Shown here one piece after another: positions 33,141 to 56,257 of a stretch of 64,000 bases of DNA (its first letter is position 1; the number at the start of each line of letters is the position of its first letter). This DNA is from an uncultured Thermoprotei archaeon (GTDB taxonomy: Archaea; Thermoproteota; Thermoprotei; Thermofilales; B15-G2). Position numbers and translations under genes: made by a program. The notes under the pieces are model-generated. The model saw nothing but the letters and a program-made list of their open reading frames with translations. It was not told where the DNA came from and did no database searches. The stretch spans positions 11,595 to 75,594 of the forward strand of contig CBDUKN010000012.1 of assembly GCA_965367815.1 (NCBI GenBank), given 5' to 3'.

Positions 33141-33518
33141 ATGTGTAACATAGAGACATTTAATCACAGTCACCATAATCCTAGACGTACAGTCTCAGAT
33201 CACCCTTTAAGAGGACTACTTAGTCTAGCTATTATGTGTCTAATTAAACAGAAGCCTACTTACGGGAGCGAAATATACCAGAATCTTAAAGAAAAATTCG
33301 GAATAAATGCTCCTCGTCCCCTAATATATACTCTGCTTAGGAGACTTGAAAGAAACGGCTTCATTACATCTACTTGGGAAATGCCTGAAAGCGGCCCTGC
33401 TAGAAGAATCTATAGAATAACAGAAGAAGGCTTGGATGTATTAAAAGACTCTGCTGTTAAACTGAAAAAAGTTATACCGCTTATAGAAAAAATAATAAAA
33501 GCTATTGAAGAAGAATAA
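33141..33518 (+). CDS. PadR family transcriptional regulator
   Basis: LRGLL...YGSEI...IYTLLRRLE..G.I.S.W...GPARRIYRITEEG. Confidence 0.9.
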   Translation: MCNIETFNHSHHNPRRTVSDHPLRGLLSLAIMCLIKQKPTYGSEIYQNLKEKFGINAPRPLIYTLLRRLERNGFITSTWEMPESGPARRIYRITEEGLDVLKDSAVKLKKVIPLIEKIIKAIEEE

Positions 33519-33569
33519 TTTAAATAAAAACTATAATTTCATTATTAATTTGCATGCTGTTACTTCCGT

Positions 33570-33905
33570 TTAATACTCCTGTGGTGGAGGAAGATACTGC
33601 GGTGCTGGCGGAGACATCGTAGTGGTCTGATAGTATCCTATTCTTCCTAACTCGTCTACTGACACTTTTATTAAAGACGCTATTGAACCTAAGCCCATTA
33701 TAATCAGCGACACAATTACAGTTATTACTCCTACTATGAAAGCTAATCCTCCTAAGCCTTCAGCAATATTGTATAGAAATGGTACGTAAGCTGTCCCCAT
33801 TAAGCCTACTCCGATAAAGAGTAGTACTCCTCCTACAATGTACCACAGTATTGAGTATACTATAGCCTTGATCGCTAACACGAATGCTCTTCCCCAACTT
33901 ATCAT
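33570..33905 (-). CDS. Small 2-TM membrane protein with Pro-rich tail
   Basis: Two hydrophobic helices; C-terminal SPPAPQYLPPPQEY. Confidence 0.7.
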   Translation of the reverse strand: MISWGRAFVLAIKAIVYSILWYIVGGVLLFIGVGLMGTAYVPFLYNIAEGLGGLAFIVGVITVIVSLIIMGLGSIASLIKVSVDELGRIGYYQTTTMSPPAPQYLPPPQEY

Positions 33906-43988: not shown

Positions 43989-46019
43989 TTATTTGAGTTC
44001 TTGGAGCTCATAAAAATCTCTGCCGTCTCTCTTCTCTACGATGAGTCTGTATATTTTTCCTCTAAAGAATAGTTTCTTGAATACTATTCTTGAGATGTTT
44101 TCTGGCAATAGAGGCTTTACTTCGAGTCCTTTCTCCGTTATTCTGATTCCGGCGAAGCCATAAATTATGTTCATTAAGTATCCTGCTGTACTTGTCAAGA
44201 AGACTATTCCTTTGTCGTGCATTAGGATCTCTCTTATTACTTCGAATGGCAGGAGGAAGAAAGGATCCCATTCTTTGAAAAGCTCTGAGGCTTCTTCGCG
44301 TTTGCCTAGTCTGCAGGCTACGACTACGTGTATTGAGGGACAAAAGCTGTGTCCTAGTTCCTTATCGGGCTTATCTATATAGTACTTGAAGTTGTTTTCG
44401 GCAACTTCTCTAGGCATAGGGTATTCTAGTGGAAAAATCATTTCGAGTACGTCTGGCTGCTTAATAGAGTGTCCGTCGTATCCATCGTACTCTAAAATGA
44501 TTTTCTTTTCTTCATCGAAGGGAATATACATTTTTTCAGCTATTTCAATCCATTTCTCGGGATATTTTATTCCCAGTCTTTCACACACTTTGATAGCAGT
44601 CTTAATGTTCCATTGCGCTATAGCATTTGTGAAAGCGCTATTGTCTACTACTGTTTTGCCCCATTTTTCGCAGACTGATTCATCAGGAGGCACTACTTTT
44701 AGTATTTCGTAGCAGTCTTTCTCAGCATTATATACAACTCTGCTGGCCCAGAATTTCGCAGTCTCAATTATAATTGGTGCAGCGCACTTTCTGAAGTATT
44801 TTTCGTCTCCTGTAGCCAAGTAGTAAAGCCACTGTGCCCACGCGACGTCTCCAACAATATGTATTTCGTCCGAGTAACCTCCTCTCGATACCTCTTTACC
44901 AGAGCTAGCTGTCTGCCAGCCGTACCACGCGCCATCGTATCCGTGTTTCCTAGCGTGTTCCTTAGCTGCCTCAAGTGTTCTACAGCGATACGCTACAATG
45001 CTTTTAGCTAGTTCAGGGTATAGTAGAATGAGCGCAGGGAACATGAAGAAGTCTGCGTCCCAGAATATGTGTCCTCCCCAGCCGTCGTTTGATAATCCCA
45101 TAGGCGGTATGCTGTGGTCTTGTCCTTCACGAACGCTAGAAACTAAGTGATATACGCAGGCTCGTATTCTGCGCTGAATAATTGGGTCATCTACCTCTAT
45201 ATCTCTTTCCCATATTTTCTCCCATTCTTTGCAGTGATCATCGAACAACTTCTCGTAGCCTTTCGCCCCACATTCCTCTGCTTTCCTTAAAGCATTTTCA
45301 AGAGGCTTCTCTGAGTCAAGTGTTGTGTAAAAAACAGTATACTTGCGCACACAGTAGCTTTTATTCTCCTCGGCTTCAAAAACCAGCTTTAGTCGAGAAG
45401 ATTTTTCCTCAACTACTTCTTTTACAGCAGATGGCTCAGGCTCGCAGACTACTTTAGATACTTCTGCAATTCTTATTTTAGATAGACTAGTTTCGACCTC
45501 TAGCCAAATAGTATTTTCTTCCGCTCCTCTTTCAATAACCCTTAGGTTTTCTAAACCAGAAGCATCTAGAAAAGTCTCTAGAACAGCCTGAATGTTTTGC
45601 CGCGGAGTAAAAACATACGATATCGCCGCCACATGGGGATCTGCCCTTGAAACAAAGAACTCTATATCAAAGTCTACGGACCCCTGAGGACTAAGCCAAG
45701 TATACTTAGTTAACAGGACCGCCTTCTTTAAGTCTAGTATTTGTTTATAGTTCTTTATTTTACTTAAATCAGAGAAAGGTTGATAATCTGAAGCAGAAAA
45801 AAGTATTCCGCTCCACTTCGGTATTTCAACTATTCTCTCGTGTTCGCCGTCATATACGCCTGCAATAAAGCTTCTTGCCTTAAAATATGCTCCTGTACCA
45901 TCTTTACTAGTCTGTATTCCTAGATACCCGTTACCTAGGTAAGAAAAGTAGTATGGTTCAAGTACATTAGTTTTAAGTCTCCAAGTATCCATTAAGCTCC
46001 CTTTAAAAAGACACAGCAA
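43989..46019 (-). CDS. Glycoside hydrolase family 65 (trehalase/kojibiose hydrolase-like); likely ATG at 45992
   Basis: GNGYLG, GHIFWDAD, HIVGDVA, PPDE and IKQPDV motifs. Confidence 0.9.
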   Translation of the reverse strand: MLCLFKGSLMDTWRLKTNVLEPYYFSYLGNGYLGIQTSKDGTGAYFKARSFIAGVYDGEHERIVEIPKWSGILFSASDYQPFSDLSKIKNYKQILDLKKAVLLTKYTWLSPQGSVDFDIEFFVSRADPHVAAISYVFTPRQNIQAVLETFLDASGLENLRVIERGAEENTIWLEVETSLSKIRIAEVSKVVCEPEPSAVKEVVEEKSSRLKLVFEAEENKSYCVRKYTVFYTTLDSEKPLENALRKAEECGAKGYEKLFDDHCKEWEKIWERDIEVDDPIIQRRIRACVYHLVSSVREGQDHSIPPMGLSNDGWGGHIFWDADFFMFPALILLYPELAKSIVAYRCRTLEAAKEHARKHGYDGAWYGWQTASSGKEVSRGGYSDEIHIVGDVAWAQWLYYLATGDEKYFRKCAAPIIIETAKFWASRVVYNAEKDCYEILKVVPPDESVCEKWGKTVVDNSAFTNAIAQWNIKTAIKVCERLGIKYPEKWIEIAEKMYIPFDEEKKIILEYDGYDGHSIKQPDVLEMIFPLEYPMPREVAENNFKYYIDKPDKELGHSFCPSIHVVVACRLGKREEASELFKEWDPFFLLPFEVIREILMHDKGIVFLTSTAGYLMNIIYGFAGIRITEKGLEVKPLLPENISRIVFKKLFFRGKIYRLIVEKRDGRDFYELQELK

Positions 46020-46036
46020 AATTTAAATGAGTATAT

Positions 46037-46699
46037 TTAATGCTGAAACTCTAGCAGCTGAATTAGCTTATATGCATAAGATTTTTCGAACGAAATATAT
46101 GCTTCAGCATATTTGACCCCAGCTTCCATTCCTCTGAAAACCATCATTTTTTCGTGAACAGGATACCATTTCTGAGGAAAACAGTTTTTATGCATATAGC
46201 ATGCTCTTTTCTTGAGCTCGGCTACTTCTGTTACATCAACGTATATTTCTGGTACAAAGCACTTTGTTTGATGCCCCGTCATTACCTCATAGAAGAATAG
46301 AGCTGGCTGAGGACTAAAACTTCTAACAACATTTATCGTGATTATTCCTACTGCTCTGTGATCAGAGTGAGTATCTATGGGCCAGTGTGTGATAATGATA
46401 TCGGGAGAAAGATCTCTTAACGTTTTCTTTACCTCAAATACAGCTTCTTTAGAGGCATATACTTCGGCGTCCTTGAAATTCAGGAAAACTATGTCAGCTC
46501 CCAGCAGCTTAAAGGCTTCTACTGCTTCCTTTTCATTTACTTTAGCGTTTTCTTCAATACTTTCCGCTCTGCCTGTAAGCTCTCCTCTCGTAAACGAAAT
46601 AGCTGTTACTTTATATCCCCTTTTAGTAAGCAGAGCAATGAGCCCACCTGCTCCTGAATCGGGATCATCTGGATGTGCGCCTAAAACTAGTATATGCAT
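46037..46699 (-). CDS. PIG-L/LmbE family deacetylase
   Basis: AHPDD, T.GE and H.DH motifs. Confidence 0.9.
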   Translation of the reverse strand: MHILVLGAHPDDPDSGAGGLIALLTKRGYKVTAISFTRGELTGRAESIEENAKVNEKEAVEAFKLLGADIVFLNFKDAEVYASKEAVFEVKKTLRDLSPDIIITHWPIDTHSDHRAVGIITINVVRSFSPQPALFFYEVMTGHQTKCFVPEIYVDVTEVAELKKRACYMHKNCFPQKWYPVHEKMMVFRGMEAGVKYAEAYISFEKSYAYKLIQLLEFQH

Positions 46700-46802
46700 A
46701 TTGCTATAGTTGATTTAAGTTATTTAACACTATTTACATAGGTTTTATCTGCTAAGACATTTTTAGAGAAAAGTTTAACTATCTGTAAGGACTCTACTTC
46801 AA

Positions 46803-46985
46803 GTGTCTAAGGAACCTAAATTAGTCAAACTGATAGATTCCTTTGAAAAAGATTACATGCACTATGAAGCATACTTTCTGGCTGGAGGAAAAATAATGCT
46901 TATTGACGAGAAAGGAGGTATAATATTTTTTGGAGACACTAAAGAATATCTCAAATACAAGAAGAAAATTCTCGATAAAAACTAG
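46803..46985 (+). CDS. Small hypothetical protein
   Basis: 60 aa, fills an intergenic gap, protein-like composition. Confidence 0.5.
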   Translation: MSKEPKLVKLIDSFEKDYMHYEAYFLAGGKIMLIDEKGGIIFFGDTKEYLKYKKKILDKN

Positions 46986-47053
46986 CTTAATATTATTTAA
47001 GGAAACTAATTAGTGTTTTAAAGTCTAGCCGCGCTACTTAAAGCGGAAACTAT

Positions 47054-47866
47054 ATGAAGTCTTGTATAAATGGAGCTACTACTATGCCTTATAGTCTTGA
47101 AGAAGATATTCGTGTAGCTAGCGAAGCTGGGTTCAAAGCTGTTGAAATATGGGTAAGTAAACTAGAAAAATTCTTATCTAAGAAAAGTAAAAGCGATTTA
47201 AAAAGGCTTTTAGAAGACTTGAATATAGGTGCTCCGTGTCTATGTGCCTTCGGAGGATATATTTTCTGCAGCGAAACCGAGTTCAAGAAAAAAGTAAGTG
47301 AGCTAAAGCCTTTCCTCGAAGTAGGAAACTACATTGGCTCTGAGTACATCGTAGTTTGTGCTGAAGGACTAGGAGGTAGAAGTTTCGAGGAAGCCTTAAA
47401 ACAGTATGTTTCTCGCTTAAGGAGATTGGGGGACTTTACAGGCGAATATGGCATTAAAGTGGCTTTAGAGTGGTTCGAGGAGCTGCCTCCAGCGATAGAG
47501 ATAGTGAAAACTGTAAATCATGAGAATGTAGGGTTCTTGATAGATACTTTTCACTGGTACCGTGGTGATGGGTCTTTAGATCACTTGAGAGAAGTTCCCG
47601 GAGATAAGCTGTTTTTTGTGCACATAAATGACTGCGAAGACTTGCCTCGAGACAAATTAGCTGACAAGCATAGGCTCTTCTGCGGTGAAGGAGTAATACC
47701 TTTAGTCGACGTACTGAAAATCTTCCGTGAGAAAGGTTACGAAGGGTACTTGTCTGTAGAGATTTTTAGGGAAGAGTACTGGAAAATGAATGTCTTAGAA
47801 ATAGCGAAGAAAGCGTACAGTAGTTTAGTTAAAGTGGCTTCTTCTGCTGGAGTATCTCTCGATTAG
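47054..47866 (+). CDS. Sugar phosphate isomerase/epimerase (IolI/IolE-like)
   Basis: ALE, DTFH, VHIND, R...GEG and SVE metal ligands. Confidence 0.85.
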   Translation: MKSCINGATTMPYSLEEDIRVASEAGFKAVEIWVSKLEKFLSKKSKSDLKRLLEDLNIGAPCLCAFGGYIFCSETEFKKKVSELKPFLEVGNYIGSEYIVVCAEGLGGRSFEEALKQYVSRLRRLGDFTGEYGIKVALEWFEELPPAIEIVKTVNHENVGFLIDTFHWYRGDGSLDHLREVPGDKLFFVHINDCEDLPRDKLADKHRLFCGEGVIPLVDVLKIFREKGYEGYLSVEIFREEYWKMNVLEIAKKAYSSLVKVASSAGVSLD

Positions 47867-47874
47867 GTGGTTTA

Positions 47875-48924
47875 ATGAAAATTAGGCTCGCTTTTATTGG
47901 AGCAGGTATAATGAACCAGCTGGTCCACATACCTAATTTCATGAGTATTAGTGATTGTGAAATAGTAGCATTGTGTGAGCTCAGAGAGAAGCTAGGTAAA
48001 GCTGTTGCCGCAAAATACCATATTCCACGCTACTATAGATCTCACTTAGACATAATTGATGTAAAGGATATAGATGCATGTGTTGTAGCTGTAGCAGACG
48101 AGCTTCACGCGCCTATAGTCATAGACTTACTCAAGTCAGGTAAACATGTTTTTGTAGAAAAACCTATAGCTACTAATTCCCGCGACGCCAAAGAAATGGT
48201 AAAGTGTGCTGAAAAAAGAGGAAGAATATTAATGGTAGGCTACATGAAACGCTATGACCCGGGCTGTAGGTACGCTAAAAGTCTCGTATCAAAGCTTATG
48301 GTCAGTAAAGAACTAGGAGAAATAACATACGCTAGAGTACATTGCTACGGCGGAGACTGGCTTGGAGGCATAATAGGTACAAGTCCTCTTGTTACTTCAG
48401 ATGAACCTAGACCTGAAGTTAAGCCTCGGCCTCCTGAGTGGATGAATCTAAGTGAATATTCTAGATACAGAGCTTTTCTCGATGTTTTCTGCCACGACAT
48501 AAACTTAATGAGATGGTTTTTCGGCGAGCCAGTGAAAATAGTTTACTCAACTTTTCACGATAATACGCATAATTCAGTGATATCTTACGAAAACTTCAAC
48601 GTGGGATTTGAAACAGGCTTTATTAAAGCTCATTTCTGGGACGAAGAGCTGAAAATATACTTTGAGAAAGGATGGATTAAAGTGAAACCTCCAATACCTT
48701 TGCTCAGAAATATTCCAGCATTAGTAGAAGTATACAGTAGCCAAAATAGAACGTTTAAGCACTGTTGGGGAAAATGGGAATGGGCATTTAAGAAAGAAGC
48801 AGAACATTTTATTGAATGCATTAAACATGATAAAGAACCCTTAACTAACGGTAGAGACGCTTTAAAAGACGTAAAGTTAATGGAGAAAATCTATAAACGT
48901 TTCCTCGAAATGAAACAGGTATAA
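47875..48924 (+). CDS. Gfo/Idh/MocA oxidoreductase
   Basis: IGAG, GKHVFVEKP, GYMKRYDP and HDINL motifs; SD-like AGGTGG upstream. Confidence 0.9.
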   Translation: MKIRLAFIGAGIMNQLVHIPNFMSISDCEIVALCELREKLGKAVAAKYHIPRYYRSHLDIIDVKDIDACVVAVADELHAPIVIDLLKSGKHVFVEKPIATNSRDAKEMVKCAEKRGRILMVGYMKRYDPGCRYAKSLVSKLMVSKELGEITYARVHCYGGDWLGGIIGTSPLVTSDEPRPEVKPRPPEWMNLSEYSRYRAFLDVFCHDINLMRWFFGEPVKIVYSTFHDNTHNSVISYENFNVGFETGFIKAHFWDEELKIYFEKGWIKVKPPIPLLRNIPALVEVYSSQNRTFKHCWGKWEWAFKKEAEHFIECIKHDKEPLTNGRDALKDVKLMEKIYKRFLEMKQV

Positions 48925-48988
48925 ATATGCTTTTATATAAAAGTCCTTCGGCGTAAATTTTTATTAACATTATGCTCTACAAAAACAT

Positions 48989-49975
48989 ATGTCCGAGAAA
49001 CTTAAGATAGGTATCTTTGTGCCTCAAGGATGGAGACTTGACTTACCTCCTGATTTACCTGCTACTGAGCAGTGGAATCTCATAGTTAAGGTAGCTAAAA
49101 GAGCCGAGGAACTAGGCTTCGACTCATTATGGGTCTTCGACCACTTCCATACAGTACCGCAGCCGATTAAAGGTAGGTCTGTTTTCGAAGCATGGACTAC
49201 GCTAACAGCATTAGCGGCAGTAACTGAGAAAATTAGGCTAGGAACATTAGTTACTTGTGTTCTCTATAGGTATCCAACTGTCTTAGCTAAAATAGTAGCC
49301 AATGTAGATGTAATATCAAACGGCAGAGTAGAATTCGGTATAGGAGCATGCTGGTACGAAAACGAGTTCAGGGGCTACGGAATACCTTTCCCTAAGCCAG
49401 CTGACAGAATAAAGGCGCTAGACGAAGCACTACAAATTATTAAAATGATGTGGACTCAAGACGAAGTAACATTCGAAGGAAAGTACTACAAAGTAGAGAA
49501 AGGACTAAATGATCCTAAGCCTGTACAGAAGCCCCATCCGCCAATTTTAGTAGCAGGAGCAGGAGAGCAATTAACTCTAAGAGTAGTAGCCAAACACGCT
49601 AACAAATACCATGTCTGGGGAGACCCAGAGTTCTACAAAAGAAAACTAGAAGTACTTAAAAAGCACTGTAAGAAAATAGGCAGAGACTTCAATGAAATAA
49701 TAAAGGTTCACGACGGCTTCTTAATAATGGGTGAAAGTGAAGAAGAAATCAAAAAGAAGATAAAAGAATGCGAATTTCTCGTACTGAGTAAGTCGAGCTA
49801 CGAAGGATTAAAGAAAACACAGTATATAGGAACACCCGAAGAAATAGTAGAAAGAGTTAAGAAATACGTCGAAGTAGGCGTCAGAGAATTCATTTTCTAC
49901 TTCCCCGATGCGTATAAGATAAAGCCGATAGAAGAATTTGCAGAAAAAGTACTTCCAGAGCTAAAAAGACTATAG
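48989..49975 (+). CDS. Luciferase-like (LLM) oxidoreductase of the F420-dependent type
   Basis: PQGW, GFDSLWVFDHF, EAWTTL.ALA, GRVEFGIGA.W.E.E and PKPVQKPHPPI motifs. Confidence 0.85.
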   Translation: MSEKLKIGIFVPQGWRLDLPPDLPATEQWNLIVKVAKRAEELGFDSLWVFDHFHTVPQPIKGRSVFEAWTTLTALAAVTEKIRLGTLVTCVLYRYPTVLAKIVANVDVISNGRVEFGIGACWYENEFRGYGIPFPKPADRIKALDEALQIIKMMWTQDEVTFEGKYYKVEKGLNDPKPVQKPHPPILVAGAGEQLTLRVVAKHANKYHVWGDPEFYKRKLEVLKKHCKKIGRDFNEIIKVHDGFLIMGESEEEIKKKIKECEFLVLSKSSYEGLKKTQYIGTPEEIVERVKKYVEVGVREFIFYFPDAYKIKPIEEFAEKVLPELKRL

Positions 49976-50018
49976 CTTTAAGTCTCTTCACCTTTTTAAA
50001 AGTTTTAGTAATGAGACT

Positions 50019-51269
50019 TTAACTAAAGTCTTTAACTATTTCAGCAATTTTTTCGGGAGTATATATTTCGACTCCAGTCTTAGAGATATTTTCTGGAACA
50101 CTTTTAGCAACTACTATCAGTCTTCTTACTAAGTTTGAAACCTTAGACTTAAAGTCATATACTTCGCTGAGACTCACCTTACCCATTTTCACCTCTATGG
50201 CTGCAATAGGCTTTCTTCCTCTCACTAAAACGCCGTCTATTTCGGGCTGAAAACGCTTCTGAACTTCAGCATCCAGTATTTGTGCAAACAAATCGACTAC
50301 GAAGCGCTCGTAGTAAAATGGAATTTTCTCCACGGCTTTCTTCCTAGTGAGGCTTAATGGAGAACGAAGCTCATAAAACCCTAGCTTAGCGTCGAGATAG
50401 AAAAAGAGGTCTAGAAGAGGAGAATCTATTGTATACAGATATCTTTTCTTATTGAATACCTTTATTTTCCTGACAAGTCCCATTTCAACAAGATTACTTA
50501 TGTACTTTTTCACATCCTGCGACTTCAGATGTTCGCTCAATATTCCTGAAAGATATGAAGCAACTTCTCCGGGAGTCTTACAGCCACAAGCAATAGCTCT
50601 TAGAACAGCCTCGTATCTTTCAGTAAGCTCTCTTTCTTCTTCTAAAAAAACTTCCCCTACAAGACCTCGAGCACTTAGCCTCAAAGCCTCTACAATTTGA
50701 TCTATTATTTCTCCATACGGTTTATCTAGATCTATGAACTCTAGTATCCAAGGATCACTAACTAAAGGAGCAAGCATTAAAGCTTCTTCTGGTCTCTTTA
50801 GTTTAAGTAAAGCGCGTAGTACGTCTAGCGGTTTAGCTAAGCCTAGCTTAACTGGCTTAACTATCCCAAGAAGAGGGCTGCGTGAATGCATAATTTTTCT
50901 TGAAACTAGCATGCTAGAACCCACTAAAATAACCTTAGCTTTGCTCCAGCTCTTCGCGTAATGAAGAAAATCTAAGAAATTTTCGGGAAGTCTCTGAAAC
51001 TCATCTATAACTAAAACAATATTATCTCTAAGAAGATTCTTAAGTCTCTCTAAGAAAACAGAGTAAGTAAGTATCTCTATGTTTCCTGCACTCTCACAAA
51101 ATATTTCCCTCCCTCTAGTTACAAAAAAGTAGTAGTCATAGTGAATCATACTTCTAACAAGAAAAGTCTTCCCTGTTTTCCTTCTACCATAGAGAAGAAC
51201 CCATCCTCTTCCCTCAAGCTTTTTAGCTTCCGAGCGGGGAATTATAAGACCCATACCCATAAAACCCAT
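50019..51269 (-). CDS. Archaeal ATPase (AAA + wHTH + PD-(D/E)xK)
   Basis: YGRRKTGKT, IDEFQRL, LVGSS and EIDG...EVK motifs. Confidence 0.85.
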   Translation of the reverse strand: MGFMGMGLIIPRSEAKKLEGRGWVLLYGRRKTGKTFLVRSMIHYDYYFFVTRGREIFCESAGNIEILTYSVFLERLKNLLRDNIVLVIDEFQRLPENFLDFLHYAKSWSKAKVILVGSSMLVSRKIMHSRSPLLGIVKPVKLGLAKPLDVLRALLKLKRPEEALMLAPLVSDPWILEFIDLDKPYGEIIDQIVEALRLSARGLVGEVFLEEERELTERYEAVLRAIACGCKTPGEVASYLSGILSEHLKSQDVKKYISNLVEMGLVRKIKVFNKKRYLYTIDSPLLDLFFYLDAKLGFYELRSPLSLTRKKAVEKIPFYYERFVVDLFAQILDAEVQKRFQPEIDGVLVRGRKPIAAIEVKMGKVSLSEVYDFKSKVSNLVRRLIVVAKSVPENISKTGVEIYTPEKIAEIVKDFS

Positions 51270-51454
51270 ACTCTAAAGTCCCTTTAATTTCTTCCGAATC
51301 ATAGAGTCCGAAATCATTAAACAAATTCTAGTGAAAACTTTATAAATAATATTATTCTTGATATTTTATAATTTAGTGCTTTATATTACATTATTTTTCA
51401 TTTAAAAAACTGAATCATAAGGACTATATAAGCTTTAGTAAAAGCGCTATCGAT

Positions 51455-51810
51455 ATGAGCTCTACAACTACAAAAGTATTAGTAGATTTAGTTAAGAAAC
51501 TAGAAGAAAAGAATGTTAAAGTATTGGTTAACAGTAAAATAAAAGGTGAAAGTGGAATTTATCATAACTTCGATTTAATAATAATGGGTAATAAAACATT
51601 ATGTATAGATATACTAGAAAACCTTACACTTAAAAAACTCATCGAAATTTTAGCAAAAGCACTAGACTTAGGTCCATTTGCAGAAATATATGCATTAATT
51701 AATAGGAAACATTGTGAAAAAATTCAGTTTAATACAACTAAGTTTAAAAAATATACTATGACGATATAAGTGATTTACCTAAGTTACTTACATCTATTGT
51801 CAACAATTAA
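51455..51810 (+). pseudogene. Restriction-endonuclease-like (G.SG..H.FD) small protein with probable frameshift in an A6 run near 51746-51751
   Basis: ORF 51455-51769 contains KIKGESGIYHNFDLII...AKALD; the -1 frame continues IYYDDISDLPKLLTSIVNN* to 51810. Confidence 0.55.
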
Positions 51811-52186
51811 TATTGAAGACACTTTTCTCGAACATTAACATTATTTTTTCAATAGTCTTTACAAATGTTTTTAATGTTAACAAATGCTGTTAATTAACCT
51901 ATAATATATTTATTTTAATTACTTTCTAGTATTATATAGAGATAATTTTTAGTGAAAGATGAGTTCCTTATATTCTTTTTTGAACAAAGCATTTTACTTT
52001 GGGGTGAAAATTGTTTTTAGAAAGACTTAAATATCTTAATTACCTAAGAGTACAGGGCATTTATGTGCTTTAGTGAGCAAATAGCTGTGACATTGTACTT
52101 ATTAATTCTATTTATGCCTAGAATAAATGTTTCTGCTATTGTATGTCCTCTCTTAAGTTACTTAGCTGGAGCTCGAGGGGACGATC

Positions 52187-52885
52187 ATGGAGCGTTTGAG
52201 TAGTCTTTTACGCGAAAAACTTAGATGGAAAATTGGTCCAGAAAGTATTCAAGATCCCTATAAACTGTTTGATAGAATAGTATCAACATATGGGTATAGC
52301 GTAGCGTCTGAAATATTTAGAGAAGCAGGACTTCCTGTTCCGAGTAGACTTGTTACTATGAAGATTATTTTGATTGGGGATTCTGGTGTAGGCAAAACTA
52401 GTTTATGTACAAGATTTACTCAAAGAGAATTTAAAGAAGACATTAAGTCTACTGTAGGCGTGGCCTTCGGTACTAGAATAATTTTAGTGGGAAATGATAC
52501 TCTAGTTAAAGCAGTTATATGGGATACTGCTGGTCAAGAAAGATTTTCTTCGCTCAGACCTCTCTACTACAAAGGAGCAGCCGGAGGTCTCGTAGTATTT
52601 GACGTAACTAGAGTAAGCTCATTTGACTTTGTAGAAAAATGGGTTAGCGAAGCACGAAGCGTCGAAAGAGACTTACCTTTACTCCTTGTAGGTAATAAAA
52701 TAGACTTACCTTGTAGAAAAGTATCTGAAGCTAATGCTTTAAAGAAAGTCGAAAAACTAGGTCTTCTGGGCTATATTGAAACTAGCGCTAAGACTGGACA
52801 GAATGTCGACGAAGCATTTTTAAAACTAATTCGAGGAGTTCTTGAAAAGCCTTGCTCAAATATAAAAATAGTTACTTTAACTTAA
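52187..52885 (+). CDS. Rab-like small GTPase with about 55-aa N-terminal extension
   Basis: G1 GDSGVGKTS, G2 STVG, G3 WDTAGQE, G4 GNKID, G5 ETSAK; RabF-like VGVAF, KAVIW, RFSSL, YYKGA, VVFDVT; SD-like GAGGGG upstream. Confidence 0.93.
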   Translation: MERLSSLLREKLRWKIGPESIQDPYKLFDRIVSTYGYSVASEIFREAGLPVPSRLVTMKIILIGDSGVGKTSLCTRFTQREFKEDIKSTVGVAFGTRIILVGNDTLVKAVIWDTAGQERFSSLRPLYYKGAAGGLVVFDVTRVSSFDFVEKWVSEARSVERDLPLLLVGNKIDLPCRKVSEANALKKVEKLGLLGYIETSAKTGQNVDEAFLKLIRGVLEKPCSNIKIVTLT

Positions 52886-53024
52886 CATATTTTCATTTAA
52901 TTTTAAACATTTCTGAAGCCATATACTCTAATGTTAACTAGAACTCCGTTTAATATAAGCGTCTAAAATATATAAATTTTCTCTAGATAAAAATAAGTAT
53001 CAGTAAAAATGGATTAATTTATGT

Positions 53025-54041
53025 ATGAAAATGAGCTTTCTTGAATACTCGCTCAAGACTTTAGCAGTAGTGTGTCCTCTTTGCAAAAGTACTTTAACTA
53101 TCGAGAAAGCTACTAGATGTGGCACTATTATTCAGAGAGCTATCTTATCTTGTACTTCATGCAATACTTTATTTAAAGTTTATGCAAGAATCCCTGTTTT
53201 ACTTAAGCCGGGTCAGTATGCTAGCTGGAACCATCCCTTCGTAGAAGCTGTCTTCGGTTTCACTCTCGAGTCCTATGAAAAACTATTAAAGAAGTATGGT
53301 GTGGAAGAAGTCAGAAGAAGAACTTTCAGAGTACTCAGAGGAGAGTATTCTCCTCCTAAAGTATTTTTCAAAGAACCTGTTGATAGAAGGCTTTTAGCTA
53401 TAGGTGGCTGGCGTATTAGAAAATGCTATGTTGAAAAGCATTTGCAAAGAATTAAGGAGCAAACAAAGAGCTCTGTGTCTCTTAAAAGAATGGTCGATAT
53501 TGTTAGAGAATATTCTCCGAGCAAAATACTTGATATGTGTTCTGGTGGAGGATTCTTTTTAACCTGTCTCATTGAAAAATATAGAGACTTTAAAGAATTC
53601 TATAGCTTTGACATAGATTATAAATGTGCTAAAAGAGTTGAAGGTACTTTAACTTACTACAAGCTCTTAGACAAGTCTTTACCTATGGTCGCTGACGCTA
53701 GAGCAATGCCATTTAAAGAAAACTACTTTGATGTAATTACCAATAATTGCGGCTTTAGCCAAATTCTCGGATTTGCTAAAGCTGTTAAGGAAGCTTACCG
53801 TGTGCTTAAGCCTGAAGGAAAACTTGTTGTGAGAGAATTTTACGGCATTACTACGTGGGACAGTGACCAAACTCGAAGAGAACTTGGATTTACTGTAGAC
53901 GAATTAGTAGAATTTTTCAGATACTGTGATATTTATGTGGACAAAGAATCCTTTATTGAAATTATTGAGAAAACCGGGTTTACTATTGAATTAATAGAGG
54001 ATATTGATGAAAGATACTACTTACTAGTGTGTACAAAGTAA
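53025..54041 (+). CDS. Trm112-like Zn-ribbon fused to a class I SAM methyltransferase
   Basis: CPLC...CTSC...IPVL N-terminus; ILDMCSGGG, ADARAMPF..FD and RVLKPEG motifs. Confidence 0.85.
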   Translation: MKMSFLEYSLKTLAVVCPLCKSTLTIEKATRCGTIIQRAILSCTSCNTLFKVYARIPVLLKPGQYASWNHPFVEAVFGFTLESYEKLLKKYGVEEVRRRTFRVLRGEYSPPKVFFKEPVDRRLLAIGGWRIRKCYVEKHLQRIKEQTKSSVSLKRMVDIVREYSPSKILDMCSGGGFFLTCLIEKYRDFKEFYSFDIDYKCAKRVEGTLTYYKLLDKSLPMVADARAMPFKENYFDVITNNCGFSQILGFAKAVKEAYRVLKPEGKLVVREFYGITTWDSDQTRRELGFTVDELVEFFRYCDIYVDKESFIEIIEKTGFTIELIEDIDERYYLLVCTK

Positions 54042-54088
54042 TCAGCTTTGCTAAGGGTCAAGTCGCTAAAATAGCGTTTATATTAAGT

Positions 54089-55273
54089 TTAAAGAGTAAG
54101 TGGAGCTTTTTCAGGCTTTCCATCTAACTCCAGTACTATTACTGTGTCATAAGGATCTGGTGCTAGCCTCGGTAGTCCTTTAAGAAATACTCTATCTTTT
54201 TTCTGCTCTACTTTTACTTCTTCTCCTGTCGTGAGAATATAAGCTGACTGCACTGAATTCGCTACACCAGCTACACATATTTCTTTACCAGGCCACCTAA
54301 ATGCATGGACATAGACCTTGTTTCCCTTAGCTGTCATAGGGCCTACCGTTGTTGTGAAGGGGCAGCGCTCCGACCCATACACTGATTCTCCGTGAACTCT
54401 CATCCACTCTCCTATTGCTTCAAGTCTTTCTAGTGCTTCCGGCGGAAATGTTCCGTCGGCTCGAGGCCCTACATTTAAAAGCAAGTTGCCTTCATAGCTG
54501 GCACATGTCACTAGAATCTGTATTAACTGTTTAACAGTCTTCCAGTTTCTATCAGCCTCAAAGTAGCCCCAGCTATCGTTCATAGTCATACATGTCTCCC
54601 AAAGCCTCCCAGGCTTAGAAGGCCTTATTACTTGCTCAGGTGTATCGAAGTCTTCCGGCAACCCCGACCGATTATTTATGAGTATTTGTGGCTGAAGCTT
54701 TCTTACTTTAGCGTTTAGTTCAGCGGCCCGCCAGTCCTCGGCCGTATAAGGCCAAGCTCCGTCATACCACAGTATGTCTATTTTACCATATTGTGTGCAG
54801 AGCTCTTCTACTTGACTGTGAACATAGTTAAGAAACTTCTCCCAGCCCTCAGGGTCTTCTTTAGGCCCTTTCCAGTAAGCGTTCCATCTCCAGTCTAGTA
54901 ACGAATAGTAAAAACCTATCTTTAGTCCCGCTTTTCTACATGCTTCCACGTATTCTTCAACAAAGTCTTTCTTAGCAGCCGACTTTACTGAAGTAAAGTC
55001 AGATACCTTACTGTCGAATAGAGAAAAGCCGTCATGGTGACGTGTAGTAAAGACCATGTACTTGGCGCCAGCTCTTTTAGCTATCTCAGCCCACTCATAG
55101 GCGTCAAACTTATCTGGTTTAAATTTATCGGCTAGCTTAGCGTACTCTCTTACTGGAATTCTCTCTAAAAACATAACCCATTCAGCTCTACCTAGAATCG
55201 AGTAAAGTCCCCAGTGAATAAATATTCCGAACCTAGCTTCACTAAACCACTTAAGCCTTTCTTCTGACGCCAT
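54089..55273 (-). CDS. Alpha-L-fucosidase (GH29)
   Basis: RFGIFIHWGLYS, TTRHHDGF, LWYDG nucleophile, WETCMTMN.SWGY and NLLLNVGP motifs; uninterrupted. Confidence 0.95.
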   Translation of the reverse strand: MASEERLKWFSEARFGIFIHWGLYSILGRAEWVMFLERIPVREYAKLADKFKPDKFDAYEWAEIAKRAGAKYMVFTTRHHDGFSLFDSKVSDFTSVKSAAKKDFVEEYVEACRKAGLKIGFYYSLLDWRWNAYWKGPKEDPEGWEKFLNYVHSQVEELCTQYGKIDILWYDGAWPYTAEDWRAAELNAKVRKLQPQILINNRSGLPEDFDTPEQVIRPSKPGRLWETCMTMNDSWGYFEADRNWKTVKQLIQILVTCASYEGNLLLNVGPRADGTFPPEALERLEAIGEWMRVHGESVYGSERCPFTTTVGPMTAKGNKVYVHAFRWPGKEICVAGVANSVQSAYILTTGEEVKVEQKKDRVFLKGLPRLAPDPYDTVIVLELDGKPEKAPLTL

Positions 55274-55365
55274 ACTTAATAGTACTCAAAATCAAATAAA
55301 TAACTTTATTACATAGTACCTCCTTAGCAAGAAAATTTTTATTCTTTAATAGATACTTACGTATC

Positions 55366-56257
55366 ATGATCGAGACATTTTATTTAATCGAAGTATTTCC
55401 ATTATTTTTAATAACACTCATTATAACTACGTTTCTGCTATCTAAAAGTGGTAAAGAGCATGTCAACACATTAGTATTCATTATAGGGCTTGCTCTCTTC
55501 ACTATACGTCCATTCGCTCTCTATATCTATGGAGAAAATTTTCCCTCAAAAATGCTGATCTTGCTTAAATACATGGACTTAGGGCTAGCGCCTAGCTTAA
55601 TTCTATCATCTATTATTTCATTTATAAAAAATTAAGGAAAATCGACTGCTGCCTCTACTTTAGTTCTCGTAGCGCTAGTAGTTATACCTATTCTCTACAT
55701 CTATTTCTACTCAGAGAACATTACTTTAATGGCAGAAATTCTGTCACTCAGTCTAGCTAATTGGCTTATATGGCATGCATTGGCAGACATTTTAGCATAT
55801 GCCCTGTTAAAGGATACATTAAGCAAGGATACATAGTAATTGCACCTCGGCTACGAAAATCTTCATCTAAGAGCTTTGTAGATAATGTCTCCAAAGTATC
55901 TACATTAATTTTCTATGGGTTTTCTTTAGTTACTTTCATATTCTCTATAATTAATGTAAACTTTACTGGATTAAGAATGAGTGTGCTTCTCGCTAAAGCA
56001 TCCTGGGTAACATTAGTATTTACATCGGTTTTTCTAGTTTCAATTAAGTGACTTCTAGATGCTGCTAACTTAAGAGCCTATAGTAAATAAGATTTCTGCC
56101 TAGAGGATATTAAGTATGGAGTATTATAGAAGAATTCGCTGGAATAACCGCTATAGTTTCCTTCATTATTCTCATGTATCAATTAGCGGGTGCATTTACT
56201 GGCGTAATTAATACCTGGAGACTAGCCTATAACCTAGCTCAAGAATTTTTCCTCTAG
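55366..56257 (+). pseudogene. Fragmented multi-TM membrane protein
   Basis: ORF 55366-55635 reads on past TAA (GKSTAASTLVLVALVVIPILYIYF...), then frameshifts into 55761-56051 and a last hydrophobic piece (EFAGITAIVSFIILMYQLAGAF...FFL*). Confidence 0.65.

Follow-up and report, generated by a model that had tools for sequence, protein, structure and literature searches.

A Rab-like small GTPase with a conserved N-terminal extension in an archaeon of the Thermofilum order

The gene, its host and its neighbours

The window (the whole stretch of DNA that was analysed, 64,000 nucleotides) comes from an uncultured heat-vent archaeon of the Thermoproteota, in the GTDB order to which Thermofilum pendens belongs. 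It encodes a Rab-like small GTPase of 232 amino acids in the following setting.

51296..52938, no strand assigned: block made up of a 104-aa ORF, a spacer and the GTPase gene (from gene order and DNA alignment; boundaries approximate)
51455..51769, + strand: 104-aa ORF of a multi-copy small-protein family, which moved together with the GTPase gene
51770..52186, + strand: A+T-rich spacer upstream of the GTPase gene, 417 nt (27.6% G+C against 37.2% in the window)
52175..52180, + strand: Shine-Dalgarno-like GAGGGG, 6 nt before the ATG (from the sequence)
52187..52885, + strand: Rab-like small GTPase gene, 232 aa, an ATG-started ORF (stop codon included)

A previous interpretation of this DNA (the sequence-only reading) had described a Rab-like gene of a non-Asgard archaeon behind a Shine-Dalgarno-like motif and an A+T-rich region of about 375 nt. 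The motif is there, and the upstream region is A+T-rich, but it measures 417 nt. The host is indeed not an Asgard archaeon: proteins of another genome of the order (G017) are identical, on exact look-up, to records of Thermofilum pendens Hrk 5, and the orthologue of the GTPase in a genome of the same genus as the window's (G001) is labelled 'Thermoprotei archaeon'. A chimeric contig had been named as a ground for doubt. The contig is not chimeric at this locus: contigs of 11.6 kb and 3.7 kb, from runs of two other studies, bridge the GTPase gene and both flanks. The flanking genes occur in the same order on a contig of G001, and the G+C content of the gene (36.8%) matches that of the window. 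The bridging contigs, the collinear flanks and the matching G+C indicate that the gene is native to this genome.

Gene-order comparison and DNA alignment showed that the block fills the intergenic region between an ATPase gene and a methyltransferase gene in the window and is absent from the collinear G001 contig. The G001 orthologue is located instead in a cluster that is syntenic with locus C7 of the window's own genome (G000:C7). No convincing terminal repeats flank the relocated block, no Rfam family reached its gathering score anywhere in the window, and a tRNA scan of the window found nothing. The 104-aa ORF is 35-37% identical to a 120-aa and a 113-aa gene beside the GTPase clusters of G001:C5 and G000:C7, respectively, and the window's copy meets a stop before the C-terminus of its family. 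We considered this ORF as a dedicated partner of the GTPase and rejected it: the family is multi-copy (6 matches in G000), it is present in 28 of the 41 genomes of the order, mostly distant from GTPase genes, and in G016, a genome of another family that carries the third orthologue, all matches lie off the contig with the GTPase. The three extension-bearing orthologues have three different neighbourhoods, and across them no conserved neighbour points to a partner.

A G domain close to that of Rab proteins

The protein divides into an N-terminal extension, a G domain and a short C-terminal tail, with the following parts.

52187..52357, + strand: N-terminal extension, aa 1-57 (conserved in orthologues; AF2)
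52358..52846, + strand: G domain, aa 58-220 (Pfam Ras at aa 59-218)
52376..52399, + strand: G1 / P-loop GDSGVGKT, aa 64-71 (sequence, alignment)
52475..52510, + strand: tip of the beta2-beta3 hairpin, aa 97-108, RIILVGNDTLVK; modelled docking surface (interface of the split-chain model)
52523..52537, + strand: G3 DTAGQ, aa 113-117, with the catalytic Gln117 (sequence, alignment; DTAGQE is 113-118)
52694..52705, + strand: G4 NKID, aa 170-173 (sequence, alignment)
52784..52792, + strand: G5 SAK, aa 200-202 (sequence, alignment; TSAK is 199-202)
52847..52882, + strand: C-terminal tail, aa 221-232, with a short strand at 228-230 (AF2 secondary structure)

Pfam Ras (PF00071) matches residues 59-218 with an E-value of 5.8e-50 and 169.5 bits against a cut-off of 21.6, whereas Pfam Arf scores only 37.4 bits. 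A phmmer search of the PDB gave Rab11 (3bfk) as the best match (E 1.9e-42), with Rab14 also among the top matches; all 60 matches listed are Rab or Ypt proteins, 59 of them eukaryotic and one the Thorarchaeota Rab 7ezb. The AF2 model of the full-length protein has a mean pLDDT of 93.9 and a pTM of 0.88. Every Foldseek match listed down to rank 50 is a Rab structure, mostly bound to a GTP analogue (TM by target 0.87-0.94), and about 167 columns align to Rab4a, Rab8 and Rab31 at an rmsd of 0.9-1.1 A. All the hallmarks of the Ras superfamily are thus present: the G1 to G5 motifs, the switch-I threonine (Thr89, from the sequence and the alignment) and, in the model, a Ras-like fold. These results agree with the sequence-only reading, which had called a Rab-like small GTPase with intact G1-G5 boxes and the catalytic Gln in DTAGQ. 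With its fold, nucleotide-binding motifs and catalytic Gln all intact, the protein should bind and hydrolyse GTP in the manner of a Rab.

The family motifs RabF1 to RabF5 reportedly go back to Pereira-Leal and Seabra in 2000. The strings VGVAF, KAVIW, RFSSL, YYKGA and VVFDVT occur in the protein exactly as had been noted, but the claim that it has all five RabF motifs is too strong. Scored against the consensus that the claim itself had quoted (IGVDF, KLQIW, RFRSI, YYRGA, LVYDIT), the window protein has 16 of 26 identities and its orthologues in G001 and G016 have 19 and 13. The range is 17-23 (mean 20.0) in 23 eukaryotic Rabs, 10-15 in the Thermofilum-type proteins discussed below and 6-8 in bacterial proteins. 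Since 16 of 26 falls just below the eukaryotic range, 'RabF-like' is fair and 'all five' is an overstatement.

The protein ends in ...EKPCSNIKIVTLT, in which the sole Cys of the tail, Cys222, is followed by 10 residues, as had been observed; no CC, CXC or CAAX motif is present at the C-terminus, and the G016 orthologue lacks the Cys. An alternating hydrophobic pattern is common to the tails of all three orthologues.

The N-terminal extension is conserved and matches no known family

The extension had been given as 55 residues long; it is real, but it comprises 57 residues, Met58 being the residue that precedes the Ras domain. In the AF2 model it consists of three helices (residues 2-12, 24-35 and 37-46) and a linker (47-57) that lengthens strand beta1. 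The corresponding segment is 49% identical in G001 and 32% identical in G016, in frame in both, and F28, V32, G36, Y37, F44, A47 and P52 do not vary among the three orthologues.

The extension could still be an annotation artefact, in which case Met58 is the true start and the 171 nt upstream are an untranslated leader. There is an in-frame ATG at codon 58, but this codon specifies Ala in G001 and Val in G016, the upstream frame is open and conserved at the protein level, and Shine-Dalgarno-like motifs precede the long starts of all three orthologues (GGTGA in G001, AGGAGGTGA in G016). Both structure predictors, moreover, fold the segment with confidence. The 23 runs listed for this sequence include no RNA run. 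Initiation at Met58, which had been named as a finding that would overturn the fusion, is therefore hardly credible. To judge from these comparisons, the extension is genuine, translated and under constraint.

We searched for relatives of the extension in several ways. A Pfam hmmscan of the three orthologous extensions at E <= 10 returned one family, Death_EDAR, at chance level (E 0.19) and for one extension. Foldseek against the PDB gave no match at E <= 0.001 among the 37 listed, and the ESM Atlas offered nothing usable, with a feature score of 0.76 against a bar of 0.9 and all structural rows below the bar. A profile of the extension, run against 1.84 billion representatives, retrieved only 2 genuine representative clusters and neither stand-alone copies nor other fusions. 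Three proteins that it matched at E about 1e-5, in 4-7 stretches each (P0147-P0149), were discarded as repeat proteins with a short 'F.EAG' motif, and of the weak matches in genomes of the order (E 0.05-0.9) the one opened, in G010, proved to be an unrelated protein. For this small helical add-on, then, the searches brought up no counterpart among Pfam families, PDB folds or other proteins.

These findings bear on the sequence-only reading's suggestion that the extension resembles DUF3227/NitrOD5-type domains, so that the protein is a sensor-GTPase fusion whose signalling or ligand-sensing domain gates the GTPase. A compact helical extension conserved in three lineages accords with a sensor, and nothing more specific does. 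Even at E <= 10, Pfam listed neither DUF3227 nor NitrOD5 for a single one of the three extensions, and Foldseek, the Atlas and the profile search lent no support either. Since the extension has no Pfam family, PDB fold or match to another protein, the suggestion is unsupported. The 57-residue unit, furthermore, has no pocket-forming elements and is modelled flat against the G domain, and we consider a sensor fusion very improbable.

The extension and the tail are modelled as one lobe on the G domain

The pLDDT of the extension is 92-97 inside the full-length AF2 model, compared with 79.5 when it is folded alone. When the extension and the rest of the protein were given to ESMFold2 as separate chains, the interface scored 0.67, against 0.00 for the best of 3 controls. 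Of 80 solved complexes 58 attain this mark, as do 2 of 110 mismatched pairs; both counts hold only roughly, since our own alignments were used. At least 94% of the contacts agreed between runs, and the partner pLDDT was at least 86. Both halves come from one chain, so this result means no more than that the predictor models a single folding unit.

On the extension side the modelled interface comprises residues 23, 25-26, 28-29, 32, 37, 50 and 52-57, which include four of the seven invariant residues (F28, V32, Y37 and P52). On the side of the G domain and tail it comprises residues 58, 80, 97-108, 219 and 226-232. Five hairpin-tip residues that are invariant in the three orthologues (R97, V101, D104, L106 and K108) lie within it, and the strand of the tail is modelled against residues 54-56. 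The extension is thus modelled, by predictors that had only three sequences covering it, not as a separate sensor domain but as one small lobe together with the 12-residue C-terminal tail.

In the model, strand beta1 is extended by residues 52-57, which pair with the beginning of beta3; the C-terminal strand packs against these same residues, and helices 2 and 3 pack onto the beta2-beta3 hairpin at its tip. The modelled lobe leaves switch I, switch II and the nucleotide pocket free. Since neither a lipid-anchor motif nor a recognisable membrane helix is present in the protein, we infer that the lobe most likely acts as a fixed docking surface, specific to the lineage, for either a partner or a location, with the switch regions signalling the nucleotide state to effectors.

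A different role for the extension is suggested by Arf, Sar and the archaeal ArvA, small GTPases with a functional N-terminal helical addition. Helix 1 might be an amphipathic membrane anchor that lies on the interswitch hairpin with GDP and is freed by GTP. In the GDP form of Arf, the N-terminal helix sits on the face of the interswitch hairpin, and the extension is modelled against the same interswitch hairpin (beta2-beta3) and against the C-terminal helix at its end. The window protein also lacks any lipidation motif, and an archaeal Arf-like GTPase with an amphipathic N-terminal helix drives vesicle formation in Haloferax (PMC10927574). However, the addition in these proteins is a single amphipathic helix, whereas that of the window protein is a three-helix unit in which amphipathicity is not conserved. 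Helix 1 has a hydrophobic moment of 0.58 in the window protein only and falls below 0.55 in G001 and G016, and we rejected it as an anchor on this account. In the model it is helices 2 and 3 and the linker that make the contacts, and helix 1 takes no part. Arf, Sar and ArvA belong to a different branch of the superfamily, the G domain here being far closer to Rab (Ras 170 bits against Arf 37 bits). An interswitch toggle is not known in Rabs. An Arf-like anchor is therefore quite improbable.

Our preferred reading is that the gene encodes a working Rab-like GTP/GDP switch, in an archaeon of the Thermofilum order, that carries a lobe built from the extension and the tail; we give this reading a probability of roughly 55%.

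A second small-GTPase lineage in the order

The extension-bearing lineage occurs in 3 of the 41 genomes of the order and, when about 15 billion proteins are clustered at 90% identity, makes up 3 clusters. In a careful tree of 87 rows, which contained no eukaryotic Ras, Rho, Ran or Arf and no MglA, the extension clade was supported at 99/96 and the clade of common Thermofilum-type GTPases at 100/100. The window protein, with its DTAGQ and its 232 residues, falls outside the latter. The first sequences to group with the extension clade are Asgard and unnamed prokaryote-type ones (81/75), followed by the eukaryotic Rabs (79/87). A single clade uniting the extension forms with the Thermofilum-type paralogues was not rejected by an AU test (p 0.311). 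The G3 motif reads DxAGQ in all three extension-bearing orthologues, DTAGQ in 23/23 eukaryotic Rabs and D[LI]GGE in 22/22 Thermofilum-type paralogues. The G domain of the window protein is 39-50% identical to eukaryotic Rabs, 36-48% to the Thermofilum type and 30-33% to the bacterial proteins. The extension clade is a second small-GTPase lineage in the order, distinct from the common Thermofilum-type paralogues. Its closest relatives appear, weakly, to be Asgard and eukaryotic Rabs, the deep nodes of the tree being weak, and its probable assignment to Rab rather than to a 'Ras-group' draws on database rankings and motifs. The lineage may have come by transfer from an Asgard archaeon or may be an old paralogue. 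Among the matches listed by a scan of genome contigs, which were Asgard, Thermoplasmatota and bacterial loci, no relative from the window's own order appeared.

The Thermofilum type (for example WP_011751755, a 'Rab family GTPase' at NCBI) shares its order and superfamily with the window protein, as well as a single small G domain, RabF-like motifs and the lack of a C-terminal Cys motif. The window's own genome contains two such paralogues, at G000:C7. They differ in that the Thermofilum type has 171-190 residues with neither extension nor tail and lacks the catalytic Gln. A gene for a Zn-ribbon protein of about 268 aa, moreover, shares the same locus of about 3.5 kb in 18 of 23 Thermofilum-type loci, and none stands at the window gene.

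The Asgard Rab-like proteins (Thor-Rab, PDB 7EZB; the Heimdallarchaeota cluster P0081/P0158, named 'Rab family GTPase'; the Helarchaeota locus L018), which the 81/75 node makes the nearest prokaryotic relatives, have in common with the window protein DT[AG]GQ, a switch II of the RPLYYKGA type and a short C-terminus without a prenylation Cys, at up to 50% identity. None of them has the 57-aa extension or the C-terminal strand, and their hosts belong to another phylum. The eukaryotic Rabs (best Rab11, Rab14, Rab4, Rab2 and Rab5) share the fold, the G motifs, the catalytic Gln and the positions of the F94/W112/Y127 triad. Unlike them, the window protein has no CC, CXC or CAAX motif, no hypervariable tail and only 16/26 RabF identities, and its extra N-terminal lobe is missing from the aligned eukaryotic Rabs. 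As for Rab regulators, the genome gave no match to a TBC GAP (PF00566), and the control genomes were equally silent. The best GDI score (PF00996) was 16.3 bits, below the Pfam cut-off, and the single Roadblock gene is distant from the GTPase gene.

Branching with bacterial-type GTPases such as MglA or Rup would have spoken against a Rab-like identity. MglA-type proteins generally lack the conserved Asp of G3. The window protein has this residue (Asp113), and in a quick tree it was separated, with the Rab-like set, from the bacterial Ras-like proteins by a long branch (length 1.23, SH-aLRT 100), MglA not being in the tree. The bacterial proteins, which came from the genome scan and carry DLAGQ, have a Ras-superfamily G domain in common with the window protein, and they probably correspond to the 'Group 1 Rup' of Wuichet and Sogaard-Andersen 2015 (PMC4316618).

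Where the Rab GTPases, signature proteins of the eukaryotic endomembrane system, have their roots among prokaryotes is a matter of debate. That a Rab-like GTPase occurs in a non-Asgard archaeon, as the sequence-only reading held, is true, but the surprise was overstated: Surkont and Pereira-Leal 2016 (PMC4915359) report Rab-like GTPases in Thermofilum pendens and a Thermofilum sp., so the non-Asgard occurrence is not new. In that paper's sense of an archaeal Rab-like GTPase, the window protein has the Rab-closest G domain, the RabF-like motifs and the short C-terminus without a prenylation Cys. In the literature that was searched, each Thermofilum species is credited with a single Rab-like gene, which belongs to the Gln-less type. 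Because Rab-like genes are already known outside the Asgard archaea, the window gene is a rare variant and not a new kind. What is new here is a second, rare, DxAGQ-bearing small-GTPase lineage in the Thermofilum order, so that the same order also holds a rarer, more Rab-like lineage with a complete catalytic set. Members of this clade could already stand in the supplementary lists of PMC4915359, of PMC4316618 or of a 2024 Arf preprint. The gene could help to test whether Asgard-type GTPases moved into the Thermoproteota, and the protein, being small and confidently modelled, lends itself to studying how a switch of the Rab type that lacks prenylation is localised or read out.

A possible link to V4R/TRAPPC3-like proteins

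The extension might also consist of the captured N-terminal helices of a V4R/TRAPPC3-like regulator, which would let the GTPase pair with such proteins. With hhalign, the extension profile matched (E 7.4e-4) a 214-aa V4R-like protein of genome G003, encoded directly upstream of a GTPase gene. The alignment spans 41 columns with 37% identity, occupies the same place at the N-terminus of both and shows a shared IV..YGY..A...F.E.G pattern. This protein belongs to a 12-member family with V4R/TRAPPC3 character: 11 of its 12 PDB matches at E <= 10 are TRAPPC3 (best 0.0053), 6 of the 12 members match Pfam V4R (best 1.1e-7), and in 5 of the 12 fetched loci, including G000:C7, the gene adjoins a Ras-like ORF. 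In the window's genome one V4R/TRAPPC3-like protein is encoded at G000:C7:32391-32906, and there are two distant paralogues of it. In Thor-TRAPPC3 the dimer interface is formed by the two N-terminal helices (PMC10933270).

However, the similarity was spotted post hoc, and against the profile of the 12-member family the match falls to E 0.018 with a probability of 2.6%. When 4,726 open frames from the window's genome (G000) were searched with hmmsearch together with the 12 partners, the best partner ranked 6th (E 0.71) and an unrelated open frame, a putative D-aminoacyl-tRNA deacylase, outscored the partners on the same short motif (E 0.006). TRAPPC3 is also missing from the Foldseek matches of the extension model. 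As a finding, we therefore set aside homology between the extension and the N-terminus of V4R/TRAPPC3, which is suggestive in one pairwise comparison and not above the proteome background. We regard capture from such a regulator as unlikely. The fuller version of this idea, a canonical, Gln-bearing Rab lineage persisting in a few archaea of the order, whose lipid anchor has been replaced by a lobe descended from dimerising V4R/TRAPPC3-like N-terminal helices, is to our mind a rather remote prospect. If it were true, the GTPase would be a Rab with part of a proto-TRAPP exchange factor physically joined to it, and its lineage would stand closer to the Rabs of Asgard archaea and eukaryotes than all Thermoproteota GTPases described to date. 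The order would then offer a genetically linked GTPase-TRAPPC3 pair, a linkage that, according to Tran et al. 2024, is generally missing in the cultured Asgard archaeon MK-D1.

As a separate observation, V4R/TRAPPC3-like genes adjoin small GTPase genes in several genomes of the order. This adjacency amounts to a testable pairing of a GTPase with a regulator, and it may matter more than the window gene itself.

The Rab-like GTPase gene and its motifs

The GTPase gene and its upstream region comprise the following features.

52187..52885 (+): Rab-like GTPase ORF with an ATG start, 232 aa, by ORF reading
6 nt before the ATG of the GTPase gene (+): GAGGGG, an SD-like motif, in the sequence
Upstream of the GTPase gene, within a 1.75-kb ATPase-methyltransferase gap: A+T-rich spacer, 417 nt, 27.6% G+C

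Residues 59-218 match the Pfam Ras family (PF00071, E 5.8e-50). A phmmer search of all PDB chains gave Rab11 (3bfk, E 1.9e-42) as the top match, and the 60 matches listed, which include the Thorarchaeota Rab 7ezb, were without exception Rab/Ypt proteins. The sequence-only reading had described this gene as an extended Rab-like GTPase, and that observation is confirmed. The G-box motifs it reported were all found (GDSGVGKT, Thr89, DTAGQE, NKID and TSAK), as were the SD-like motif and a sole Cys located 10 residues from the C-terminal end, with no prenylation motif. The five RabF-like strings are exact, but their identity to the consensus used there, 16 of 26 residues, falls just under the range of 23 aligned eukaryotic Rabs (17-23, mean 20.0); the short Rab-like paralogues common in the order (Thermofilum-type) score 10-15 and bacterial Ras-like proteins 6-8. 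The N-terminal extension is genuine but 57 aa long rather than 55, and the upstream region is A+T-rich as described but spans 417 nt, not about 375.

Host and integrity of the locus

The source assembly (2.45 Mb, 37 contigs) is 99.4% complete and 1.76% contaminated. Two proteins of G017, a genome of the same order, are letter-for-letter identical to Thermofilum pendens Hrk 5 records, and the G017 GTPase is WP_011751755, named 'Rab family GTPase'. A same-genus orthologue of the window's protein carries the database label 'Thermoprotei archaeon'. These record identities and the orthologue label place the host among the Thermoproteota, in the order of Thermofilum but in another family, which supports the non-Asgard host proposed earlier.

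The sequence-only reading had listed a chimeric contig among its grounds for refutation. We looked for bridging contigs in four runs from four studies, with the possible source run excluded. An 11.6-kb contig of run X6 covers window positions 49500-55500 with 158 differences and a 3.7-kb contig of run X2, with 31 differences, covers 49714-53378; X7 and X8 yield only piecewise coverage of the locus. In addition, the genes at 43992-51272 and 53007-55285 keep the same order on contig C66 of G001, a genome of the same genus, with proteins 69-97% identical. Since the X6 and X2 contigs span the locus and its flanks are collinear with C66, the locus is no assembly chimera.

That this order holds a Rab-like GTPase, presented earlier as a surprise, had been published before: Surkont and Pereira-Leal 2016 (PMC4915359) described one Rab-like protein each from Thermofilum pendens and a Thermofilum sp., without a C-terminal Cys and with an inconclusive phylogeny.

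A separate lineage with the canonical Gln

From a pool of 223 distinct G-domain sequences, 87 entered the tree: three extension forms (the window's protein and its orthologues in G001 and in G016, a genome of another family), 22 Thermofilum-type, two other Thermoproteota, eight Asgard, nine unnamed prokaryote-looking, 23 eukaryotic, eight Thermoplasmatota or methanogen and 12 bacterial. The 136 left out were mostly unnamed metagenome matches, more bacterial loci and two near-identical variants. Eukaryotic rows were labelled by source names or a C-terminal CC/CXC, and the tree held no eukaryotic Ras, Rho, Ran or Arf.

The careful tree supported the extension clade at 99/96 and the Thermofilum-type clade at 100/100. 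The extension clade grouped with Helarchaeota, a Heimdallarchaeota-type cluster and three unnamed sequences (81/75), and this group was then joined by eukaryotic Rabs (79/87); deeper nodes were unsupported. Over the G domain, the window's protein is 39-50% identical to eukaryotic Rabs, 33-50% to Asgard, 36-48% to Thermofilum-type and 30-33% to bacterial sequences. The G3 motif is DxAGQ in all three extension forms and D[LI]GGE in 22/22 Thermofilum-type proteins. Tree position, identities and G3 motif together argue that the gene is not of bacterial type, an origin that the sequence-only reading had named as grounds for refutation.

The extension clade is a lineage separate from the published Thermofilum Rab-like genes. 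A clade uniting the extension forms with the Thermofilum-type paralogues was not rejected by an AU test (p 0.311), and the extension lineage may have arisen either by Asgard-to-Thermofilum-order transfer or as an old paralogue. A 2024 preprint on Asgard Arf relatives (10.1101/2024.02.28.582541) infers that one Korarchaeia lineage acquired a GTPase from Asgard archaea, a precedent for the transfer scenario. What is new is that the Thermofilum order holds a rare Rab-like lineage with the canonical Gln.

Among prokaryotes outside Thermoproteota, the best match (47% identity) lies on a Helarchaeota contig (L018:3586-4578). There a Rab-like domain forms the C-terminal part of an open frame of 331 codons, and the roughly 160 residues ahead of it would be another kind of N-terminal fusion to a related G domain.

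Distribution and relocation of the gene

Any match to the window's protein occurs in 29 of 41 genomes of the order, and an extension match at E <= 0.001 only in G000 (the source genome), G001 and G016. The G016 orthologue (246 aa, 45% identity overall) has a strong AGGAGGTGA 5' of its start. In a 401-genome sample of the phylum, 16 genomes had a match at E <= 1e-20, 14 of them from the Thermofilum order. Full-length coverage in a 5.8-billion-cluster collection was limited to two other clusters, P0001 (98% identity) and P0002 (62%); with the G016 cluster included, the clade totals three clusters and nine member sequences. Its occurrence in two of eight families of the order requires several losses or transfer.

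The three orthologues have three different neighbourhoods. In G000 the 1.75-kb ATPase-methyltransferase gap contains the A+T-rich spacer, the GTPase gene and one further ORF:

51455-51769 (+): 104-aa ORF of a multi-copy family, no Pfam match

The corresponding gap in G001:C66 is about 430 nt, and it aligns with the window at its ends only, over 26 nt on one side and about 85 nt on the other. The G001 orthologue (62% identity) is on contig C5, with a 205-aa gene on one side and a short Rab-like paralogue on the other, in a cluster syntenic with G000:C7, from which the extension-bearing gene is missing. Thus, the GTPase gene has moved between the two locations; no flanking repeats bounding the moved block were found.

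The 104-aa ORF has paralogues (35-37%) in the G001:C5 and G000:C7 clusters, namely their 120-aa and 113-aa genes. Because its family is multi-copy (six matches in G000, five in G001, present in 28/41 order genomes) and elsewhere mostly unlinked to GTPase genes, we draw no functional link to the GTPase. Family members share a G.SG..H.FD motif and are stand-alone (~120 aa) or lie inside ~305-425-aa open frames; the window's copy meets a stop codon short of the C-terminus usual for the family.

By Pfam, the neighbouring 416-aa protein (50019-51269, minus strand) has both an AAA_14/archaeal-ATPase-type P-loop and an MCM-like winged helix; it is 82% conserved in G001 and bears no apparent relation to the GTPase. 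A homologue of the window's 394-aa gene (54089-55273) in G004 (C1:364510-364900, in L147) is fragmentary, with TGA and TAG stops, and looks like a pseudogene from its sequence; beside the fragments lies a G004 copy of the methyltransferase gene, 85% identical to that of the window.

The extension is translated and modelled as part of an added lobe

Seven extension residues (F28, V32, G36, Y37, F44, A47 and P52) are invariant in all three lineages, in an open, conserved frame. Codon 58, at which a shorter protein could start, encodes Ala in G001 and Val in G016, and SD-like motifs precede the long starts in all three orthologues. These features uphold the long start and indicate that the extension is translated.

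AlphaFold2 with a 67-row alignment gave a mean pLDDT of 93.9 and a pTM of 0.88. The extension (pLDDT 92-97) forms helices at 2-12, 24-35 and 37-46, strand beta1 begins at 54 and a C-terminal strand spans 228-230. Modelled alone, the extension retained its helices (pLDDT 79.5).

The extension had been likened to a DUF3227/NitrOD5-type sensor domain. Pfam at E <= 10 returned one chance-level row and neither family; of the 37 Foldseek matches in the PDB at E <= 10, none reached E <= 0.001; structural rows from the ESM Atlas (feature score 0.76) were all sub-threshold; and a three-sequence profile run against 1.84 billion representatives found only two clade clusters and three repeat proteins. With no relative in any of these searches, the sensor-domain reading is without support.

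Residues 58-232 and 1-57 were also run as two chains in a complex predictor (ESMFold2). The score was 0.67, against a best of 0.00 among three controls, with contact agreement of at least 94% and partner pLDDT of at least 86. This mark was attained by 58/80 solved complexes and 2/110 mismatched pairs, counts that are only rough because alignments prepared for this analysis were used. Both chains come from a single protein, so this outcome means that they are modelled as one folding unit, and no more.

The modelled interface joins extension residues 23, 25-26, 28-29, 32, 37, 50 and 52-57 to residues 58, 80, 97-108, 219 and 226-232. It contains four of the seven invariant extension residues and five invariant residues within 97-108, and no switch-I or switch-II residues. 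Helices 2-3 lie over the hairpin tip. The closest pairs (104-108 with 52-56; 227-229 with 54-56) suggest that the linker would extend beta1 alongside beta3, with the C-terminal strand on its other side. Short paralogues end directly after the last helix, so extension and tail occur together in the extension clade, which is compatible with a single added lobe. This lineage-specific N-terminal plus C-terminal lobe, without detectable relatives, is also new; our literature search found no N-terminally extended Rab-like protein in Thermoproteota, and supplementary lists may include clade members.

Regulators, paralogues and V4R/TRAPPC3-like genes

G000 has a single Roadblock/LC7 gene, on C2 and distant from the GTPase gene; TBC gave no match in this genome, and GDI none above the cut-off.

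At 18/23 Thermofilum-type loci, a gene for a conserved ~268-aa Zn-ribbon protein lies within the same ~3.5-kb locus; it was not found in the four loci of G000 and G001, nor in G014. The GTPase and ~268-aa genes have overlapping stop and start codons in T. pendens and one congener (two loci). The ~268-aa protein is a candidate dedicated partner of the Thermofilum-type clade. It matches no Pfam family at E <= 0.1. At L098:186-992 (-) and L099:186-992 (-) its gene is directly 3' of the short GTPase gene. The protein has an N-terminal Zn-ribbon-like CxxC pair and is 'hypothetical' in T. pendens (WP_011751754) and 'truncated hemoglobin YjbI' in some JGI records. All 22 Thermofilum-type GTPases (L002-L017, L098-L107, L128) place Glu at the catalytic Gln position, with D[LI]GGE for DxxGQ; judged from this motif, their GTP hydrolysis presumably proceeds in another way or depends on a partner.

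A V4R/TRAPPC3-like family (best PDB TRAPPC3 match E 0.0053; Pfam V4R in 6/12 members) adjoins a Ras-like ORF in 5/12 fetched loci, across three families of the order and three different GTPase subtypes:

G000:C7:32391-32906, then 33188-33688 (L138): V4R/TRAPPC3-like gene, then short GTPase paralogue, by gene order
L133 (G003:C31), L137 (G015), L140 (G019), L141 (G009): other V4R/TRAPPC3-like and Ras-like pairs

Tran et al. 2024 (PMC10933270) solved the structures of Thor-Rab and Thor-TRAPPC3. In contrast to the linkage seen in this order, they noted that operons of the cultured Asgard MK-D1 do not generally combine a small GTPase gene with roadblock, longin or TRAPPC3 genes. We found no publication treating both Thermofilum and V4R.

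The extension aligned with the N-terminus of one V4R/TRAPPC3-like protein (hhalign E 7.4e-4), and the match dropped to E 0.018 against the family profile; in a profile search the similarity was not above proteome background. Kinship between the two is therefore a low-probability lead. The V4R-like frame at L138:1462-2046 (G000:C7) has 193 codons, and the family match begins before the first ATG/GTG/TTG, which leaves 158 aa; this gene has either an unusual start codon or lost its N-terminal helix.
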